A DNA stretch of 23,684 nucleotides from a virus: UHGV virus genome UHGV-0175797, one strand, 5' to 3'. Positions 2,795 through 15,014 of this stretch are shown in pieces. Each line of letters opens with the position of its first letter. Within the stretch, counting starts at the first letter, position 1. The notes beneath the pieces are model-generated. The model saw nothing but the letters and a program-made list of their open reading frames with translations, was not told the origin of the DNA and ran no database searches. The translations under genes were made by a program, and so were the position numbers.

Positions 2795-3016
2795 ATGGCG
2801 GTATTTAATATTCCTGATATTTACGGACGCTTTTACCTGGTTAATTTCGATAACGTGAAGGTGATTTCACTGGCCGAAAATAAAGCATGTGGCGATTTAC
2901 TTTTTGAATTTAATGACCGCACACGAATGGTGATATCTGCCGGACTTGATCGCGAAGGTGCGACAGAAGTTTACAGCGGAATATGCCGTTCTGTTGGTGC
3001 GAAACAAGTCAGCTAA
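2795..3016 (+). CDS. hypothetical small early protein (73 aa), occupies the kil-like position after B
   Basis: ORF starts 2 nt after the B stop, preceded by AGGTG; AT-richer than the backbone. No recognisable motif. Confidence 0.5.
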   Translation: MAVFNIPDIYGRFYLVNFDNVKVISLAENKACGDLLFEFNDRTRMVISAGLDREGATEVYSGICRSVGAKQVS

Positions 3017-3028
3017 ATGAGGTGTTAT

Positions 3029-3283
3029 ATGAATATGCAATCCTGCGGTAACAAAATGAATTTATTCGACTCCCTGAACAGCGCGCGCCGTCTGACCGAA
3101 CTTGCCGGTGCGGTACTGGAACGCAGTAAGCGCTATCCGCAACGTTTTGCACTGAAAACCACGCCGCCGGTAGGCAACGTGCAGGGAACCGGTGAAATTG
3201 AAATCACCATACAGACCAACGGCCTGCGCCGCCGTGTGAAGGCCACCCGCATCAGCGGCTGCACGGTTTACTGGGAGGTGTGA
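3029..3283 (+). CDS. hypothetical small early protein
   Basis: ORF with GAGGTG just upstream; the start is ambiguous between ATG 3017, 3029 and 3035. No recognisable motif. Confidence 0.45.
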   Translation: MNMQSCGNKMNLFDSLNSARRLTELAGAVLERSKRYPQRFALKTTPPVGNVQGTGEIEITIQTNGLRRRVKATRISGCTVYWEV

Positions 3284-4144: not shown

Positions 4145-4675
4145 ATGGCTAAACGCGTTACAAAATTAAAGGCCGCAGCCGAGGCAGCACCGCAGACCCG
4201 TGAAGAGGTCAGCCGCGATATCCGACGCTTTGGGGATATGCAGCGTGAGGCACTACGCCTGGAAACGGCGATGAATGACGAAGTGGCAGAAATCACCGCC
4301 CGTTATACGCCGCAGATTGAAAACCTTAAAAAAGAAATCAAAGTGCTTTTTAAGGGGATTCATGACTGGTGTAAAACCAACCGCAATGAGCTGACGAACG
4401 GCGGCGAAACCAAAACAGCCAATCTGACCACCGGAACGGTGTCATGGCGGCTGGGAACGCCATCATGCAGCGTCAGCCGTGATGTGGAAGGCGTGATTGA
4501 AATGCTGCGCCGTATGGGCCTTGAGCGCTTCATCCGCACGAAAGAGGAAGTGAATAAGCAAGCTGTCCTGGCGGAGCCAGATGCGGTGAAGGGCATTGCC
4601 GGTATAAAGGTGAATAAAGGCGCTGAAAGTTTTTATGTCGAGCCTTTTGAACAGGACGCCGGACTGAATAAATAA
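4145..4675 (+). CDS. gam: Gam-like host-nuclease inhibitor (Mu Gam / Ku-like dsDNA-end-binding protein)
   Basis: 176 aa; matches Mu Gam as I remember it along most of its length (MAK...LKAAA, DI+R+GD+QREA RLET MND+AEIT, ELTNGG..KTANL.TG.VSWR, L+RFIRTK+E+NK A+L EP AV G+AGI V.G E F + PFEQ). Same relative position as in Mu. Confidence 0.85.
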   Translation: MAKRVTKLKAAAEAAPQTREEVSRDIRRFGDMQREALRLETAMNDEVAEITARYTPQIENLKKEIKVLFKGIHDWCKTNRNELTNGGETKTANLTTGTVSWRLGTPSCSVSRDVEGVIEMLRRMGLERFIRTKEEVNKQAVLAEPDAVKGIAGIKVNKGAESFYVEPFEQDAGLNK

Positions 4676-4772
4676 CACCGCATTAAATCTTTAAATATCA
4701 CATCGTGTTAATTATGGCGCTCGCGTCAGGGGACTGCCTGCGCCTGTAAACTGAAAATAAGGAACAGGAAAT

Positions 4773-5315
4773 ATGGCATATTTTTATTTCAAATTAGACA
4801 TAGTGTACACAAATAAATATTTAACCGAATATCAGCGGGATGTTTTACCGCTACGCAACAGTATTCTTCGGGCATTACTGAAAAATACAGGCGCTGCCGG
4901 ATTGCGCTTAAAGCCGTTCGCCATGGACGTAATCAGTGAGTTTTATTTTTCTGGTTCTCTGCCTGCGGGCTGGCGTAAGCGCGATGATGTGGCTTTTATC
5001 GGGGACGGACCGTGCTTTATTGCCAGACCTGATGAGTCATGCCCTGAAGGTCCGGCGATTGCCGCAATGATTGAAACCGCTGAACGTGAGTTAAGAAAGC
5101 GTCCTGATTTCCTTGTCTGGCTCTGTGAAAAGCTGGGGGTAATGAGAATCCCCTCCATGTTTAACACGGACTCCTGGTGGACCCCGTCGCTCTCCCGTGA
5201 TGCCCTGTGCGTGGTGTTTAAAGTAGGCGCTTATGGCAGGGAAATAAAAGGGGGTATTCCTGAAGAATGCCAGGAAATTAAACATTCTGAATATGTGGCG
5301 CTGACGGAGGAATAA
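4773..5315 (+). CDS. hypothetical protein (180 aa)
   Basis: ORF with AAGGAACAGG RBS; AT-rich 5' part; first of three translationally coupled genes. Confidence 0.55.
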   Translation: MAYFYFKLDIVYTNKYLTEYQRDVLPLRNSILRALLKNTGAAGLRLKPFAMDVISEFYFSGSLPAGWRKRDDVAFIGDGPCFIARPDESCPEGPAIAAMIETAERELRKRPDFLVWLCEKLGVMRIPSMFNTDSWWTPSLSRDALCVVFKVGAYGREIKGGIPEECQEIKHSEYVALTEE

Positions 5316-5318
5316 TTC

Positions 5319-5852
5319 ATGATTGATGCAAAAGTGCTTGAAGGGGTTAAAAGCTGGCTGCGTTTTTCTGGCCGTCTGACCAGTCGTTCTCTGGCAGAAA
5401 AAATGAATATGCCGCTATCCTCCATGGTTTATTTTCTGCGTGATGCGGTCGATGCCGGGGTGCTGACGGACCGTAACGGTTTTTATGATATTCCGCGTCC
5501 CCGCCCGGTGCAGGCGGTTCGTCGCAAATGCAGCCAGGAAGGTGCGGCTGATGATGTTCAGTGGTGCAGCTTCAGAAAATCCCTGCCGTGGATTGAGGGG
5601 CATGATATTCCGTCGATGGCGTGGGAATTTGCTCAGGGAGTACTGACCTGCGAAACCGTTTATGTGGTGGCTGAAGTTGATGAGCAGGCCATGAAAGAAG
5701 GCGTGCCCCAGTTTGTGATGGCGTATATCGACATTCGCCTGGGCGTCATTATCTGCGGCTTAAGCGGCTGGAACATCACCGGGCGCGTTCTGCGTTACCT
5801 GATTATTGACCGGACAGCGGCATCGGCAGGGATATCTGCGGAGGTGGCGTAA
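5319..5852 (+). CDS. hypothetical protein with N-terminal winged-HTH-like segment (177 aa)
   Basis: Starts 3 nt after the previous stop; the segment SLAEKMNMPLSSMVYFLRDAVDAGVL looks like a wHTH; its stop overlaps the next start (TAATG). Confidence 0.55.
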   Translation: MIDAKVLEGVKSWLRFSGRLTSRSLAEKMNMPLSSMVYFLRDAVDAGVLTDRNGFYDIPRPRPVQAVRRKCSQEGAADDVQWCSFRKSLPWIEGHDIPSMAWEFAQGVLTCETVYVVAEVDEQAMKEGVPQFVMAYIDIRLGVIICGLSGWNITGRVLRYLIIDRTAASAGISAEVA

Positions 5853-6367
5853 TGTTCTTTAAAACATCAAACCCTTCCGCGCTGGCTGCGTGGCAAAAAT
5901 ACCAGCAGGACTGCCAGAAAGTTAAGGATGAGGCAAAACGCCTTGAGGCCGTGCTGAATGTTGCGTGCCGGTCGGTATTTGTATCCGGTATCAGTGGATT
6001 TTGCTTTAAGGGACTGCGTTTTACGGAGGACAAATATCCTTTTCATCGCGACTTATGGCGAAAACCGACTGCGTCGAATGGCTGGAGCTGCACACCGCGC
6101 ACATCACGTATCCCTAAAACCCTGCGTGTTGCCTCTGATGAACTGAACAGTCTGTGGCGTGAATATTCGCCCGTCACGTATGCCAGAACCGATGCGCTGT
6201 TGTTCTGGCTGGGTATTGATTTCTCGGCAATCCTGTTTGGCCCTGTGAAGTGGTTCTGCGTTGACGATGTGATTTACCTTCAGTGCGGCGTAAAACCCGC
6301 AAAACAGAAAATGACCGAAATACTGTCTGATGAGTTTTATGCTGCTGAAAAGCGAGTCAGGGGGTGA
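5852..6367 (+). CDS. hypothetical protein (171 aa)
   Basis: Translationally coupled to both neighbours. No recognisable motif. Confidence 0.55.
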   Translation: MFFKTSNPSALAAWQKYQQDCQKVKDEAKRLEAVLNVACRSVFVSGISGFCFKGLRFTEDKYPFHRDLWRKPTASNGWSCTPRTSRIPKTLRVASDELNSLWREYSPVTYARTDALLFWLGIDFSAILFGPVKWFCVDDVIYLQCGVKPAKQKMTEILSDEFYAAEKRVRG

Positions 6368-6370
6368 TGC

Positions 6371-6922
6371 ATGATGAAATTACAACCCATGGGACTAAAA
6401 GGTCGCGCCCCCGCTCATGTCCGTCCGTGGACACCTGAAGAAGATGCGCTGCTGATTGCGCTTTATTCATCCACCCCGGTTAAGGATATTGCTGCCAGAA
6501 TAAAAAGAACTGTCTGGGCTGTATATAACCGGACTGGTGTATTGCGCAGTTCATACCCGGAGTTACTGAAATATAAACACCCAAGATTTACACCTGATGA
6601 AGATAAGTTTATTCGAAAAAATGCCAGAACAATGACCTGCCAGCAAATGGGAGAATATCTCGGACGTAATAAAGATTCTGTCAGATGTCGGGCAGGAATG
6701 ATTGGTGCTGGATTAACAAAGTGCGGAGAGTTACGCCCCGGCACGCGCATATCTGATGATGATGTACGTCTTATACGTGCGCTGCGTGATTCCGATTACC
6801 CACGCCGTCTGTCATTCCGGGAAATTGGCGAAAAGTTTGGAATATCTGAACATTCTGCTCACGCAGTTTATTACCGTCGCCGGACTGCCGAGGACGCTGT
6901 ATTACGGGAGTTAACGCCATGA
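6371..6922 (+). CDS. DNA-binding protein with two Myb/SANT-like repeats and a C-terminal HTH
   Basis: Internal duplication: WTPEEDALLIALYSS...IAARIKRTVWAVYNRTGVL and FTPDEDKFIRKNARTMTCQQMGEYLGRNKDSVRCRAGMIG (SANT/Myb-type signature W/F-T-x-E/D-E-D ... R-T/N ... R), followed by LSFREIGEKFGISEHSAHAVYYRR. Confidence 0.6.
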   Translation: MMKLQPMGLKGRAPAHVRPWTPEEDALLIALYSSTPVKDIAARIKRTVWAVYNRTGVLRSSYPELLKYKHPRFTPDEDKFIRKNARTMTCQQMGEYLGRNKDSVRCRAGMIGAGLTKCGELRPGTRISDDDVRLIRALRDSDYPRRLSFREIGEKFGISEHSAHAVYYRRRTAEDAVLRELTP

Positions 6923-7251
6923 TAACGACCTTATTTGTTGAATCAGATGAACCTCTTGTGTGTGCCGCCGGAATGCCGCTCTGTGGCGGAACGCTGACCG
7001 GCGTTTATTTCGGGGATTTGCGCGGTTATCCCTGGCATTCACTGGATGACGCATTTCCGCCTGATATGGAGGCTGTCGTGCTGATTGTTCAGTATGGTGA
7101 CCAACAGGAACTGCGCATCGGCCATATGGGGTATGAAGGCTTTTTTATTGATGAAGAAACCGGAGCCTGCCTTGAAGATGAGGACGGACAGGTGACGCAC
7201 TGGTGCCATCTTTCGGCCTTGCCGGAATTACAGGGGATACATAATGGATGA
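6919..7251 (+). CDS. DUF551-like acidic phage protein (110 aa)
   Basis: C-terminal motif VTHWCHLSALPEL resembles the THWMPLPEPP signature of DUF551; the start overlaps the previous stop (ATGA). Confidence 0.5.
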   Translation: MITTLFVESDEPLVCAAGMPLCGGTLTGVYFGDLRGYPWHSLDDAFPPDMEAVVLIVQYGDQQELRIGHMGYEGFFIDEETGACLEDEDGQVTHWCHLSALPELQGIHNG

Positions 7252-7387
7252 GCAAATTGTTGAATGTCCCACCTGTGGAAATGAGGACCCGGAGTATCTG
7301 AAAGAGTGCCCACATTGTGGTGAGATAAAATGTAACCACTGCGATATGGGCGACGACACTGCATGTATAAATTGTGAGGATGAATAA
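7244..7387 (+). CDS. small zinc-ribbon protein (47 aa, four CxxC motifs); absent from the ORF track because it is under 60 aa
   Basis: ATG 7244 overlaps the previous gene's 3' end. Translation MDEQIVECPTCGNEDPEYLKECPHCGEIKCNHCDMGDDTACINCEDE has CPTC, CPHC, CNHC and CINC. Stop TAA at 7385-7387 is followed 1 nt later by the next ATG. Confidence 0.45.
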   Translation: MDEQIVECPTCGNEDPEYLKECPHCGEIKCNHCDMGDDTACINCEDE

Positions 7388-7388
7388 T

Positions 7389-7676
7389 ATGGAAAAAGAA
7401 ATCAAATTTGCGCCTAAATCTATCGACGAAGAACTGGCTAAAATCGGCATGCTTGAACGTATGCGGGACATTATCGAATATGCGATAAAAGAAAATCTTG
7501 CAGCCAGAGAAGCCCTTTTGATAATGGAGCGGGAGATTAACCTGATTAAGGATGCTGTATCTCTGGATAATAAAATAGCCCGCGAGGAATACGTTCGCCG
7601 CAGGCTCGGTGTTGATGGTTCAGCAATTCTTACATCTGAACATTATGCAAAAATTTTTAATCTTTTTCAGCGGTAA
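7389..7676 (+). CDS. hypothetical helical protein (95 aa) in a low-GC segment
   Basis: ATG 7389 is coupled to the preceding stop; the region is AT-rich; the 3' end overlaps a convergent minus-strand ORF by 20 nt. Confidence 0.5.
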   Translation: MEKEIKFAPKSIDEELAKIGMLERMRDIIEYAIKENLAAREALLIMEREINLIKDAVSLDNKIAREEYVRRRLGVDGSAILTSEHYAKIFNLFQR

Positions 7677-7896
7677 TCCCCATACAGGCCCGGAGATTGT
7701 CGAAATGCCAGTCGGTATTAATATATGAGCCATCCTGGATATCTTCTGTATTTTCCGGGGTAGAGTTTTTTTGAGCGAGATTGATAATATGTATTGCCTC
7801 CTCACGGGAAATCAGCCCCTTATCGAACAGGGTTACCATAAGATTTCCAGCCATTGTGAATGCGGCAACATCAAGTGCATTTTTTATATCTGACAT
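7657..7896 (-). CDS. hypothetical small protein (79 aa), reverse-oriented low-GC gene inside the early operon
   Basis: Minus-strand ATG at 7896 with AAGGA about 9 nt upstream; AT-rich; convergent with and antisense to the early operon. Confidence 0.45.
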   Translation of the reverse strand: MSDIKNALDVAAFTMAGNLMVTLFDKGLISREEAIHIINLAQKNSTPENTEDIQDGSYINTDWHFDNLRACMGITAEKD

Positions 7897-7924
7897 AGAT
7901 TTTTCCTTTTATGTTAATTGACAT

Positions 7925-7953
7925 GGCGGTGCGGTAACACCGCCCATTTTTTA
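7925..7953 (+). terminator. rho-independent terminator-like hairpin (GGCGGTG-cggtaa-CACCGCC followed by CATTTTTTAT)
   Basis: 7-bp GC-rich perfect stem with a 6-nt loop and a T-tract on the + strand, located between the low-GC cassette and the gemA-like gene. Confidence 0.55.
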
Positions 7954-7966
7954 TGGAGCCACGATA

Positions 7967-8479
7967 ATGAATCGCGCTTCCCTGATTACCTTAATACATG
8001 TCGCAAAACGCGATCTACAGCTTGACCATGATACCTATACATCCGCGCTGCTGGCAGCCACCGGCAAATCCAGTTGCCGTGATATGTCACCCGGTGAGTT
8101 ATCCCGCGTGCTGGATGTTTTCAAAAAACGCGGTTTTAAAGTGCGTCAGAAGCCGGTTAACCGGGCCTTAAAACCGGGTACGGTGACCGCCAAAATTCGC
8201 GCCATCTGGAAAGTGATGCACCGGCAGGGATTTATCTCTGATGGCGGGGAAACGGCCCTTAACCGCTGGGTGAAATCGCAGACGGCCGCGCAGAACGACG
8301 GCGAAGGTGTGGCTAACTGGCAGTGGCTGGAGCAACAACCCGCGCTGGCCTCTGATGTGCTGGAGCGTCTCAAACGCTGGCACCGCCGCAAAATGCTGGC
8401 AGCCCTGGATATGTCGGAACGTGCAGTGATGAGTTATGAGCGTGTTTGCAGGCTGTATGAAAAATCATTCCCCCGTTAA
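7967..8479 (+). CDS. gemA: GemA-like regulatory protein (Mu gp16 / DUF1018 family)
   Basis: The N-terminal pattern LITLIHVAKRDLQLDHDTYTSALLAATGKSS...ELSRVLDVF matches the GemA family signature; position immediately before the Mor/C-family gene as in Mu. Confidence 0.65.
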   Translation: MNRASLITLIHVAKRDLQLDHDTYTSALLAATGKSSCRDMSPGELSRVLDVFKKRGFKVRQKPVNRALKPGTVTAKIRAIWKVMHRQGFISDGGETALNRWVKSQTAAQNDGEGVANWQWLEQQPALASDVLERLKRWHRRKMLAALDMSERAVMSYERVCRLYEKSFPR

Positions 8480-8483
8480 CCCC

Positions 8484-8515
8484 AAATCCCGCCACAGCGC
8501 GGGATTTTTATTTTA
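8484..8515 (+). terminator. rho-independent terminator-like hairpin (AAATCCCGC-cacagc-GCGGGATTT followed by TTATTTT)
   Basis: Perfect 9-bp stem plus T-tract immediately after the gemA-like stop and about 35 bp before the Mor/C-family start. Confidence 0.65.
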
Positions 8516-8549: not shown

Positions 8550-8972
8550 ATGGCTGAAACACAGATGAGCATGTTTGGTGACAGCGAACAGCTGCACGCG
8601 CTGATTGACCGTCTGGATGATATTCCTGATGATGAGCTGAAAAAGAACTGGCCCGGCACGCTGCGGGACCTGGTTGATGTGATCAGTGCTGAACTGCACC
8701 GTCAGGGGATTGAACCTGCTCAGGCGGGAATGCTTGCCCGTAAGGTTGCAGCCGCACAGGCCGGGTACATGGGCGGGCGTGGTTATTATCTCCCGGTCGG
8801 TGAATCCCTTTTCACCGAACTGCGCAATAATGAAATTTTTTCCCGCTGGAGCCAGGGCGAAAAAATTGAAACCCTGCGCCGCCACTACCAGATGTCAGAG
8901 ACGCAGATTTACTCCGTTATCCGCAACCAGCGTCGCCTGCATCAGGAGCGCACGCAGCCCCGGCTTTTCTGA
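8550..8972 (+). CDS. Mor/C-family transcriptional activator (middle/late gene activator), 140 aa
   Basis: Aligns by eye with Mu Mor across the family-conserved segments (FGD, L..L+D.L..EL.R.G+.PA.A, GG..YY+P.G..L, C-terminal HTH ...Y.+S...+Y.VIR..RRL). Length and position (after a terminator, directly before the lysis gene) are more like Mu C. GGAGG RBS. Confidence 0.75.
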   Translation: MAETQMSMFGDSEQLHALIDRLDDIPDDELKKNWPGTLRDLVDVISAELHRQGIEPAQAGMLARKVAAAQAGYMGGRGYYLPVGESLFTELRNNEIFSRWSQGEKIETLRRHYQMSETQIYSVIRNQRRLHQERTQPRLF

Positions 8973-12520: not shown

Positions 12521-14022
12521 TGATTAACTTTGATTATATCGGCGATAACAATCGCATTCCGCTGGTACAGATTGAAATCAATAATTCAATGGCCGTGACC
12601 GGCACTCCACCACAGCGTCAGGCGGTACTGTTGTTTGGTCAGGCTGCAATGAAAGACACCACCATTCAGGGGCGCGGTCAGCTTGATGTACCAGTACGTA
12701 TTACCCGAGCTTCACAAGCAAGAGAACTCTGGGGGCGAGGTTCCATGATTGCACTGATGGTAGAGGAATTTATCGCCATTAACCCTGACACAGAGTTATA
12801 TGCCATTGCACAGGGGGCTGGAACAGGTCAGTCCAGGGCATGCGTGATGAATATCATTGGAACAGCATTGGCAGACGGGGTGTTAAGTGTTTACATCGGC
12901 GGTCGCCGTTACCTCCTGCCCGTCAGTAAGGGGAAAAAAGGTAAAGAGCTTGTGGAAGAGCTGGCTAAGGTCATTAACGCTGACACTGATGCGCCATTCA
13001 CTGCTATCGCAGCTGAAGTCAGTGGTGATAATGCTGAAGGACTTAAAGGGAGCATGGGGGTTAACGCCCGCTTTATCGGTGAATGCTCAGCTCATGATTT
13101 ACGGGTGAACTATTATGACGGTGAAACTACACCGGCCGGTCTTACGCTGGAGCTCGTCGCGCCAACACAGAAGGCAACAAACCCCGATATCACCCGTAGC
13201 GTCTCAGGGATGGGGAATCGTCAGTACAACTACATCGTCATGCCCTATAAGGATGCGGCAAATCTCAAAATTCTGGCGGATGAACTGCTGAAACGCTGGG
13301 GACCGGTAAAAATGTCGGACGGTATGGTCTGGATGGCGCATACCGGCACCTTCGGTACGGCAACCAGTTTTGGTGAATCCCGTAATGACTTCCTGTTTAC
13401 CTGCACTTCTATTCCTAAAGCACCAGAGCCGGATTATGTCTGGGCGGCCTCCATTTGTGCGGTCTGTGCGCCCTCCCTGTCAACGGATCCGGCCCGACCA
13501 TTACAGACACTGGCGCTGCCTGCCCGTATGGCACCTGAAGCACCGGCTCGTCTGACGCGGGAAGAGCGAAACAGCCTGCTTTATACCGGCATGTCCACGG
13601 TGACCGTTGCGGCCGCTGATGTGGTGCAGATTGAACGTCAGGTGACGATGTACCGTCAGAATGCATACGGCGAAAGCGATCCCAGCTATCTGGATGTAGA
13701 AACCATCTACACCCTGTCATATCTGCGTTATTCCCTGCGCACCTTTATCACGCAGCGTTTCCCGCGCCACAAACTGGCCGATAACGGTACTCCCGTCCGG
13801 CCCGGTCAGAATATCGTGACGCCGGAGATTATGACGCTCCAGCTGATTGCACTGGGGGAAGAATGGGTGGAACTCGGGCTGGTCGAAAATCTGGACACCT
13901 TTAAAAAGAATCTGCTCGTGGAGCGCAACACAAAAGACCGTAACCGTCTGGATGTGATGTGTACACCGGATCTGGTTAACCAGTTCCGCTTCATGGCCGC
14001 GCAGATCCGTTTCATTTTGTGA
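12520..14022 (+). CDS. contractile tail sheath protein (Mu gpL-like)
   Basis: 500 aa; the N-terminus (DYIGDNNRIPLVQIEINNS) is typical of myophage sheath proteins; followed by a tube gene as in Mu L-M. Confidence 0.85.
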   Translation: MINFDYIGDNNRIPLVQIEINNSMAVTGTPPQRQAVLLFGQAAMKDTTIQGRGQLDVPVRITRASQARELWGRGSMIALMVEEFIAINPDTELYAIAQGAGTGQSRACVMNIIGTALADGVLSVYIGGRRYLLPVSKGKKGKELVEELAKVINADTDAPFTAIAAEVSGDNAEGLKGSMGVNARFIGECSAHDLRVNYYDGETTPAGLTLELVAPTQKATNPDITRSVSGMGNRQYNYIVMPYKDAANLKILADELLKRWGPVKMSDGMVWMAHTGTFGTATSFGESRNDFLFTCTSIPKAPEPDYVWAASICAVCAPSLSTDPARPLQTLALPARMAPEAPARLTREERNSLLYTGMSTVTVAAADVVQIERQVTMYRQNAYGESDPSYLDVETIYTLSYLRYSLRTFITQRFPRHKLADNGTPVRPGQNIVTPEIMTLQLIALGEEWVELGLVENLDTFKKNLLVERNTKDRNRLDVMCTPDLVNQFRFMAAQIRFIL

Positions 14023-14030
14023 GGTAAGGC

Positions 14031-14396
14031 ATGAGCGGAAAACAGCATCAGGGCACGGCCACCATCCGTGTGAACGGACAGGAGTACGCCACCCTTGAGG
14101 GAGCCACGTTCTCCCCGTCCGGCTTTGAGCGTGAAGTGGTGAAAGGCGCGAAAGTCTATGGCTATCGTGAGAAACCCCGTGAGGCGACGCTGGACTGTAA
14201 ATTTCCGGCTGGCGGAGAAGGTTCACCGGCTGCCGATGAAATCAACACCTGGACTGCGGTCACGATTGAGTTCGTGGCCGATACCGGTGAAGTCCATATG
14301 ATGACGAAGGCCTGGAGCAGTGAACCGGCCTCGCTTGACGGTGGCGGTGATATCTCCGCGAAGTTCGCCAGCGCCACCAGTACCCGTGTCCAGTAA
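14031..14396 (+). CDS. tail tube protein (Mu gpM-like)
   Basis: 121 aa, immediately after the sheath; size and position are typical. Confidence 0.75.
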   Translation: MSGKQHQGTATIRVNGQEYATLEGATFSPSGFEREVVKGAKVYGYREKPREATLDCKFPAGGEGSPAADEINTWTAVTIEFVADTGEVHMMTKAWSSEPASLDGGGDISAKFASATSTRVQ

Positions 14397-14410
14397 TCAG
14401 GAAAAATGCA

Positions 14411-14890
14411 ATGACCACACGTAAGAAAAAAACGGCGGTTTCTGACGAGGCCGTGATGGAGGCTATCCGGGATGTACTTGAAGACGGCGATCCCCGCACC
14501 GCCGGGCTGGCTGAACAGCTGGCGAACGGCTATGTGGATCTGCTCGACGGTCTGCCGTTCGGGGAATCCCGTGAATACCGCGTCACCTTCCGCGAACTGA
14601 CGGCGAAAGACAGCATTGACGCGGAAACCGAGGCCGAGCGTCTTATGGAAACCCGAAATGGCGGCCCGGTTCTGATAGCCTCGCCGGCACTGCGCGGCAT
14701 TGCACTGCTGCGCCGTCAGATTGCCGCTGTTGGCCAGATTGAGGGGCCATTGTCTCCGCGTCAGATCGGACAGCTCAGCGAGCGCGATCTCTCCCGTCTG
14801 ATGGCGGCGGTAAGCCTGCTTGATTCCGCGATGGCAGGAAAGCTGGTCGCTGAACGGGGGCGACCAGATGCAGTGCCGGGATCAGATTGA
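14411..14890 (+). CDS. tail assembly chaperone (Mu gp41-like)
   Basis: 159 aa acidic protein directly upstream of the tape measure gene, with an overlapping alternative-frame ORF at its 3' end. Confidence 0.6.
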   Translation: MTTRKKKTAVSDEAVMEAIRDVLEDGDPRTAGLAEQLANGYVDLLDGLPFGESREYRVTFRELTAKDSIDAETEAERLMETRNGGPVLIASPALRGIALLRRQIAAVGQIEGPLSPRQIGQLSERDLSRLMAAVSLLDSAMAGKLVAERGRPDAVPGSD

Positions 14891-15014
14891 AGAAGCCGCA
14901 ATTGTGCTGGGGATGGTGACAAAAAGCGGCCCGGAGTGGGCGCTTAACCTCCCCTTATCGCAGCTTTACCGGCACTGCCGACAGACCGAAAAAATTCTCA
15001 GAACGAAGCAGTAA
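14820..15014 (+). CDS. possible frameshift extension of the tail chaperone (or an independent 48-aa ORF from ATG 14868)
   Basis: ORF in the +1 frame relative to the chaperone, overlapping its last 70 nt and ending 3 nt before the tape measure start. Confidence 0.3.
   Translation: MIPRWQESWSLNGGDQMQCRDQIEEAAIVLGMVTKSGPEWALNLPLSQLYRHCRQTEKILRTKQ

Follow-up and report, generated by a model that had tools for sequence, protein, structure and literature searches.

Three coupled early genes downstream of gam in an Sp18-type Mu-like prophage: orthologues of Mu gp11 and gp12 and an optional DUF5420-like gene

The virus genome UHGV-0175797, analysed over a stretch of 23,684 nt (the window), is a Mu-like prophage of the Sp18 type from E. 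coli O157:H7. An O157:H7 prophage matches the window at 100% identity, and Sp18 of strain Sakai does so at ~95% nucleotide identity. Here we describe three of its genes, termed A, B and C, which follow gam (4145-4675, plus strand), the gene of a Mu Gam-like DNA-end-binding host-nuclease inhibitor (PF07352, E 6.9e-40; phrog_491; 55% identity to Mu Gam). Genes A (4773-5315, 180 aa), B (5319-5852, 177 aa) and C (5852-6367, 171 aa) are all encoded on the plus strand and correspond to ECs_4953, ECs_4954 and ECs_4955 of Sp18. A preliminary description of this DNA had reported three open reading frames (ORFs) of these lengths at 4773-6367 with tight junctions, and both the ORFs and the junctions were confirmed: A and B are separated by 3 nt, B and C overlap by 1 nt (TAATG), and another 3 nt lie between C and the gene at 6371. 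Each of the three starts is preceded by a good Shine-Dalgarno sequence at a distance of 7-8 nt, which reads GGAGG before B and before C. A conserved non-coding element (4706-4752) is located 3' of gam.

The preliminary description recognised none of the three proteins from Mu, a statement that is wrong for two of them since B and C are, judged by their sequences, orthologous to Mu gp11 and gp12. B aligned with Mu gp11 over its full length (residues 1-177) at 63% identity and matched phrog_1949 with an E-value of 3.8e-98. Its predicted C-terminal domain (residues 90-167; 5586-5819, plus strand) scored 133.8 bits on the Pfam model PF25754, 'Phage Mu Gp11 C-terminal domain' (Gp11_C; cutoff 27; E 2.7e-39). 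B also occupies the position of the gp11 family, that is, 3' of gam and directly 5' of gp12 within the early operon. C shares 54% identity with Mu gp12 over residues 1-169 and belongs to phrog_2314. Its assignment to PF26885 was made via its homologues rather than by scoring C on the model, and the precomputed annotation was present on 46 of the 46 C homologues retrieved. In a locus 92% identical to this one, the name given by PGAP to the product of C is 'Mu-Gp12 family protein'. Mu itself carries gam at 5801-6325, gp11 at 6424-6954 and gp12 at 6954-7484, with the same 1-nt overlap. Under the older Mu names, gp11 (Mup11) is E10-E12 and gp12 (Mup12) is E13.

A winged-helix-like N-terminus, as previously described for the middle protein, was also found in the predicted structure of B, where residues 1-60 (5319-5498, plus strand) are modelled as a winged helix; the model is of low confidence (predicted local distance difference test, pLDDT, 57). 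Structural neighbours of this putative domain included MarR, ArsR and Lrp regulators as well as RNA- or protein-binding domains (eS25, SelB, Z-alpha). No helix-turn-helix (HTH) family was hit by B at E ≤ 1 in Pfam or NCBIfam, and a PDB sequence search with B returned just a chance-level match to an AsnC regulator (E 0.96).

Gene A is found neither in Mu nor in D108. Its product shares 40% identity with the SfMu protein encoded at the same position, which RefSeq calls 'DUF5420 family protein', and likewise with proteins of three Yersinia Mu-like phages. Searches of Pfam with A gave no match at E ≤ 1, PF17457 (DUF5420) included. A profile search run exhaustively against 1.84 billion representatives yielded 26 related clusters only, nearly all of them 180-210 aa long; the giant protein P0204 (E 8e-4 to the A profile) turned out to be a DUF285/PKD repeat protein and was discarded as spurious. 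Among the aligned relatives, 18 of 21 matched PF17457 (best E 9.3e-28) and all 21 belonged to phrog_2260. The family ends with the motif EIKxSEFxALTEE-COOH, and A carries the DUF5420 motif IKxSE[FY]xALTEE. Given the identity to the SfMu protein, the PF17457-matching relatives, the membership in phrog_2260 and the common C-terminal motif, we read A as a divergent member of DUF5420. AlphaFold2 modelled it with high confidence (pLDDT 92.8) as an alpha/beta fold for which we found no solved relative.

Direct BLASTP of A against C, as well as hhalign of shallow profiles, detected no relationship between the two proteins. With diverse profiles, built from 21 DUF5420 sequences and from 11 sequences of the gp12 family (some of them from Klebsiella and Vibrio phages), hhalign aligned 155 colinear columns, nearly all of both proteins, with an E-value of 4.7e-6 and a probability of 86%. 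Reruns gave E-values from 3.6e-6 to 9e-5, versus 0.2-0.65 over 11-33 columns in controls with the gp11 family and with reversed sequences. In addition, the top 12 non-self matches of the DUF5420 hidden Markov model (HMM) among ~13,000-15,000 local ORFs were all gp12-family ORFs, which are not independent of each other since they are homologues. Nearly every column conserved across the two families is hydrophobic, and these columns line up with the strands and helices modelled for A; the polar positions common to both comprise one Lys/Arg, one Ser/Thr and one Glu only. Both families begin with [YF][FY]K and finish with EI..[SD]E[FY]. Thus, the profile comparison shows A and C to be distant paralogues with one phage-specific alpha/beta fold, modelled on A. 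Sequence and profile searches of the PDB with all three families returned nothing meaningful, and matches to dihydrofolate reductase and fatty-acid-binding protein entries (E ~0.2-0.6) were judged to be chance. The paralogy of DUF5420 and Mu-Gp12, together with their confidently predicted fold, which has no solved relative, may be a new, if modest, finding.

In the preliminary description the genes of the trio were suggested to be co-translated partners. We analysed 150 related IMG/VR loci together with annotated loci of reference phages, assigning the genes next to gp11 to families by means of HMMs. Of the 76 distinct gp11 neighbourhoods obtained, 34 contained A upstream and C downstream, 22 had C without A (the Mu arrangement), 8 had A without C and 12 lacked both; these proportions are biased because the loci had been gathered with A, B and C probes. 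The 1-nt overlap of B and C was present at 32 of 32 distinct junctions, and the 3-nt spacing of A and B at 22 of 23. Beyond these phages, gp12-like genes accompanied by neither gp11 nor DUF5420 were found in transposable phages of Klebsiella, in lytic Klebsiella Lastavirus and in several phages of Vibrio; in every case they sat among small early genes. As all four A/C combinations exist around B, and as gp12-like genes occur alone in unrelated phages, A, B and C do not form an obligate unit. Rather, gp11 and gp12 often occur as a coupled pair, to which A is an optional addition, and elsewhere the gp12 fold works alone. The prospect of homologues being found only singly and in unrelated contexts, which the preliminary description had named as evidence against a module, is thereby partly borne out. 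No conserved neighbour of the gp12-like genes was found across the distant phages. Examples of such lone genes, 25-30% identical to C, are located in Klebsiella phage SopranoGao (54744-55280), Vibrio phage PS14A.1 (17152-17727, four genes upstream of a DNA ligase gene) and Klebsiella phage ST405-OXA48phi1.1 (5887-6423). The block is carried by ~4% of complete E. coli genomes; a scan of genome contigs returned a single locus, in Citrobacter braakii, too few to address host range.

The position of A varies even among the closest relatives of the window. In this lineage, where identity is at least 94% for Gam, 87-100% for B and 91-100% for C, the slot is occupied by an A allele (89-100% identity), by a 24%-identical, SfMu-like DUF5420 allele, or is empty. 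Empty relatives (loci L009, at ~2960-3034, L012, L015 and L101) have retained the ribosome-binding site of A and a 14-codon stub, MKYVYIVINNVVGK followed by a stop, which begins with MKYVY, the start of DUF5420 proteins. Mu has kept the other end: just before gp11, at 6400-6423, it reads ATT ACT GAG GAA TAA, that is, ITEE-stop, the C-terminus of DUF5420. These remnants argue for an ancestral DUF5420 gene that was deleted independently more than once, and not for a recent insertion. A thus appears, from these sequences, to be ancestral and to have been repeatedly lost, as in Mu, or replaced by different DUF5420 alleles. Compared with close alleles, the ratio of non-synonymous to synonymous substitution rates (dN/dS) was 0.53 for A, 0.24 for B and 0.16 for C, versus 0.09 for gam and 0.05 for MuB; in some pairs, A, a fast-evolving gene, reached values of up to ~1.

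The swap boundary of this slot lies directly 3' of the post-gam element. The element is ~45 nt long (4706-4752 in the window, ~6370-6412 in Mu, and also present in SfMu) and reads TTAATTATGGCGC..CGTCAGGGGA..GCGCCTGNAA, with the last block also written GCGCCTGAA (TTAATTATGGCGC..CGTCAGGGGA..GCGCCTGAA). Of 43 distinct post-gam segments, 41 carry it, those of Mu and SfMu among them, and it is far better conserved than the flanking genes; between the same groups of phages, Gam is only 55% identical. The element has an invariant 5-bp GC stem, but a structured RNA is not supported, since we found no covariation or compensatory pairs, a fold z-score of -0.41 and no Rfam family. Neither a promoter nor a terminator was called within it. 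Its core, GCGTCAGGGGACTGC, had seven matches with up to three mismatches in the window versus 0.76 expected from shuffles. The six extra 15-mers (2-3 mismatches; at 2341, 6003, 8699, 14045, 16251 and 21574) may reflect coding bias or weak binding sites. Both the element and the deletion remnants in Mu and in the Sp18 relatives may be new, again as a modest observation.

Tight spacing characterises the early operon throughout and is not confined to the trio. The early region starts with a MuA-like transposase gene (38-1777) and MuB (1851-2792), followed by a run of small ORFs up to gam. From MuB to ~7676, nearly all junctions range from -14 to +11 nt, and the 97-nt gap between gam and A is the sole sizeable one in this chain. 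No sigma-70-like promoter or intrinsic terminator was called from gam to ~7900. A three-gene unit is not supported: coupling is operon-wide, A and C combine around B in four ways, and only the B-C junction is invariant where both genes are present. Beyond C, the chain continues 3 nt downstream with gene D (6371-6922, plus strand), predicted to encode a 183-aa SANT/Myb-like DNA-binding protein (phrog_323), and with gene E (6919-7251, plus strand; 110 aa, phrog_6925, weakly DUF551-like), which overlaps the stop of D by 4 nt. These are followed by a 47-aa Cys-rich ORF (7244-7387, plus strand), a homologue of Mu gp13 (88% identity by tblastn) that overlaps the stop of E, and by the gene of a 100-aa protein. 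Relatives carry D in two allele classes (97-100% and 70-74% identity) within otherwise similar backbones, and E is present or absent among relatives with near-identical backbones. The 47-aa ORF contains CPTCG..CPHCG..CNHC..CINC, resembles a zinc ribbon, overlaps both of its neighbours and falls under common ORF-length cut-offs. On the minus strand, a 79-aa gene (7657-7896) is the positional counterpart of Mu gp15. Downstream landmarks are gemA (Mu gp16; 7967-8479, plus strand; PF06252, E 1.8e-28) and mor (8550-8972), after which the endolysin and late genes follow. Strong terminator-like hairpins with T-runs flank gemA at 7925-7944 and 8484-8507 (plus strand), the first of them after the 79-aa minus-strand gene.

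This layout places the trio in the SEE (semi-essential early) region as defined for Mu-like phages (PMC4553209, PMC8705779): A, B and C lie between MuA/MuB and gemA/mor, are co-oriented with the early operon and have small, poorly conserved neighbours. For Mu, the SEE gene list and the functions kil, gam, sot, arm, cim plus gemA/B have been compiled (PMC4553209), and the region is, according to PMC8705779, poorly conserved and rich in small genes that are uncharacterised. Deletion of the SE region of Mu removes host killing while lysogenisation is still possible, and the region is reported to be toxic and dispensable (PMC3325207). The assignment of A, B and C to an accessory early region, made in the preliminary description, therefore holds up: the SEE region is dispensable and poorly conserved, and the A slot is a hotspot of swap and loss.

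We favour the view that the products of A, B and C belong to the ordinary accessory proteins of the SEE region, bind rather than catalyse, and tune host or phage DNA transactions during early lytic development. As a whole we consider this package moderately probable, with most of our confidence attached to the identity of the proteins. By analogy with Mu, the three genes would be transcribed from the early promoter in one translationally coupled chain that extends from MuB to just before gemA. Their products would appear at an early stage of lytic growth and be absent from the lysogen, and they would be dispensable, as suggested by the SE deletion of Mu. As modelled, B would act via its winged-helix domain, through nucleic-acid or protein contact, and via its Gp11_C domain. 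A and C may act by binding through their phage-specific alpha/beta fold, whose conserved positions lie almost all in the hydrophobic core. Core-only conservation with almost no invariant polar residues, together with the winged helix, points to binding proteins and not enzymes, and no recognisable enzyme signature was found in A, B or C.

Several points weigh against this view. PDB, profile, fold and literature searches revealed no solved structure or annotated relative that points to a function, and DUF5420, PF25754 and PF26885 appeared in no paper of the searchable literature, where no functional study was found. The mechanistic part is what we infer. The winged helix of B belongs to the low-confidence model (pLDDT 57), and a non-enzymatic nature is read solely from the scarcity of conserved polar residues. 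Early-promoter expression and dispensability are extrapolated from Mu to this prophage, and the proportions of gp11 neighbourhoods carry the bias introduced by our probes.

Other explanations appear unlikely to us. One is the anti-defence module envisaged in the preliminary description, in which A, B and C, singly or jointly, would neutralise a host immune system, such as restriction-modification, retrons, CBASS or Thoeris, early in infection, beside the RecBCD-blocking Gam. The accessory early region next to gam would be a suitable place, and allele swap and recurrent loss of A in a near-identical backbone, combined with the top dN/dS (0.53), resemble an arms race; the fold of A and C is also phage-restricted and occurs in the early regions of diverse phages. 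However, positive evidence is lacking, B and C are under purifying selection, and A can be viewed more simply as partly redundant with its paralogue. No similarity in sequence or fold was found between the three proteins and known anti-defence proteins (Ocr/Ard-type DNA mimics, Acr proteins, Tad/Gad-type sponges and inhibitors). PADLOC gave no match at E ≤ 1 for any of the genes A to E or for those adjoining them, and NCBIfam none for the trio. With no known defence or anti-defence protein or fold matched, the idea is speculation from position alone. In a broader version, which we likewise hold to be rather doubtful, DUF5420 and Mu-Gp12 would constitute one widespread, phage-restricted early superfamily with an alpha/beta fold not seen before, whose members bind and neutralise a conserved host factor or immune sensor. 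The post-gam hotspot would in that case serve as a locus of counter-defence diversity, in which A and C are variants of specificity and gp11 is a winged-helix partner.

Another possibility, also improbable in our judgement, is that gp11 and gp12 provide 'arm' (amplified replication of Mu) and raise replicative transposition, for example at the handover from transpososome to replisome or at DNA ends with Gam. On the classical Mu map, arm is located between gam/sot and lig/gem, which we take to be the gp11-gp15 interval. Within the interval, gp11 and gp12 are the largest ORFs, the predicted winged helix of B is compatible with DNA binding, and many Mu-like phages of enterobacteria carry the pair as a constant, coupled feature. 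On the other hand, gp12 is missing from 20 of the 76 gp11 neighbourhoods, and gp12-like genes occur in non-transposable lytic phages that lack MuA and MuB. Their presence there indicates that the function is not specific to transposition, which weakens the link to arm.

We attach little probability to a regulatory role of B, transcriptional or post-transcriptional, in which B would bind the post-gam element (4706-4752) or promoters of the host and A and C would serve as co-factors. The winged-helix fold of B with MarR, ArsR and Lrp neighbours would fit, in phages that carry B the element is invariably located just upstream of the A/B genes, and the core of the element recurs in the window more often than expected (7 versus 0.76). 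Yet B matches no HTH family in Pfam, its low-confidence winged helix has neighbours such as eS25, SelB and Z-alpha as well, the additional occurrences of the motif are weak, with 2-3 mismatches, and may be due to coding bias, and A and C are found without B. Finally, frequent deletion of A and dN/dS values of ~1 in some pairs could be taken to mean that the trio consists of non-functional chance ORFs or decaying remnants, a reading that is effectively refuted by the conservation data, as full-length conservation across many phages and prophages, down to 30% identity, marks A, B and C as real genes, and dN/dS below 1, good Shine-Dalgarno sequences and the confident AlphaFold2 fold of A agree with this.

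We therefore return to ordinary SEE accessory proteins: the trio is a piece of Mu's dispensable early region and not a newly found three-gene module. Its genes have long been catalogued, gp11 and gp12 from the time the Mu genome was sequenced and ECs_4953-4955 from that of the Sakai genome, and Pfam lists the families DUF5420, Gp11_C and Mu-Gp12, so no new kind of system is added. The trio nevertheless bears on an old and real question, since the SEE genetic functions arm and cim are mostly without assigned proteins. The paralogy with its unsolved fold, the lost ancestral DUF5420 gene and the boundary element are concrete targets for deletion, pull-down and structural work.

Among known systems, Sp18 of Sakai is the closest. 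It is a prophage of the same type with the same three genes and no substantive difference, and all three are annotated there as 'hypothetical protein'; Sp18 has been reported to be intact and packaged (PMC2669165). Mu matches the window in the position of gp11-gp12 after gam, their order, the 1-nt overlap and the Pfam families (Gp11_C and Mu-Gp12). In contrast to the window, which has A there, Mu lacks a gene between gam and gp11 and has kept the post-gam element plus the apparent last codons of the lost DUF5420 gene. SfMu shows the same order as the window, that is, gam, DUF5420 (named gp11 there), a gp11-like gene (gp12) and a gp12-like gene. Its DUF5420 allele differs from A, as stated above, and its gp12 homologue is, unlike C, unannotated, with the first ~20 codons frameshifted in the deposited sequence. 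We located this homologue at 7443-7970 of NC_027382 (54% identity to residues 21-168 of C); its start is out of frame, probably through an indel in a 5' T/A run. According to the SfMu paper, SfMu lacks a counterpart of Mu orf12; this looks like an artefact of annotation or sequencing, unless the gene has recently become a pseudogene. Accessory early-region genes of other transposable phages, such as the host-interaction genes of Pseudomonas phages of the D3112/JBD type, may be viewed as analogues that give no hint of a target for A, B or C. Like the window, such phages carry small, dispensable and poorly conserved genes in the early operon, 3' of the transposition genes; PMC8705779 gives a general description of the SEE region.

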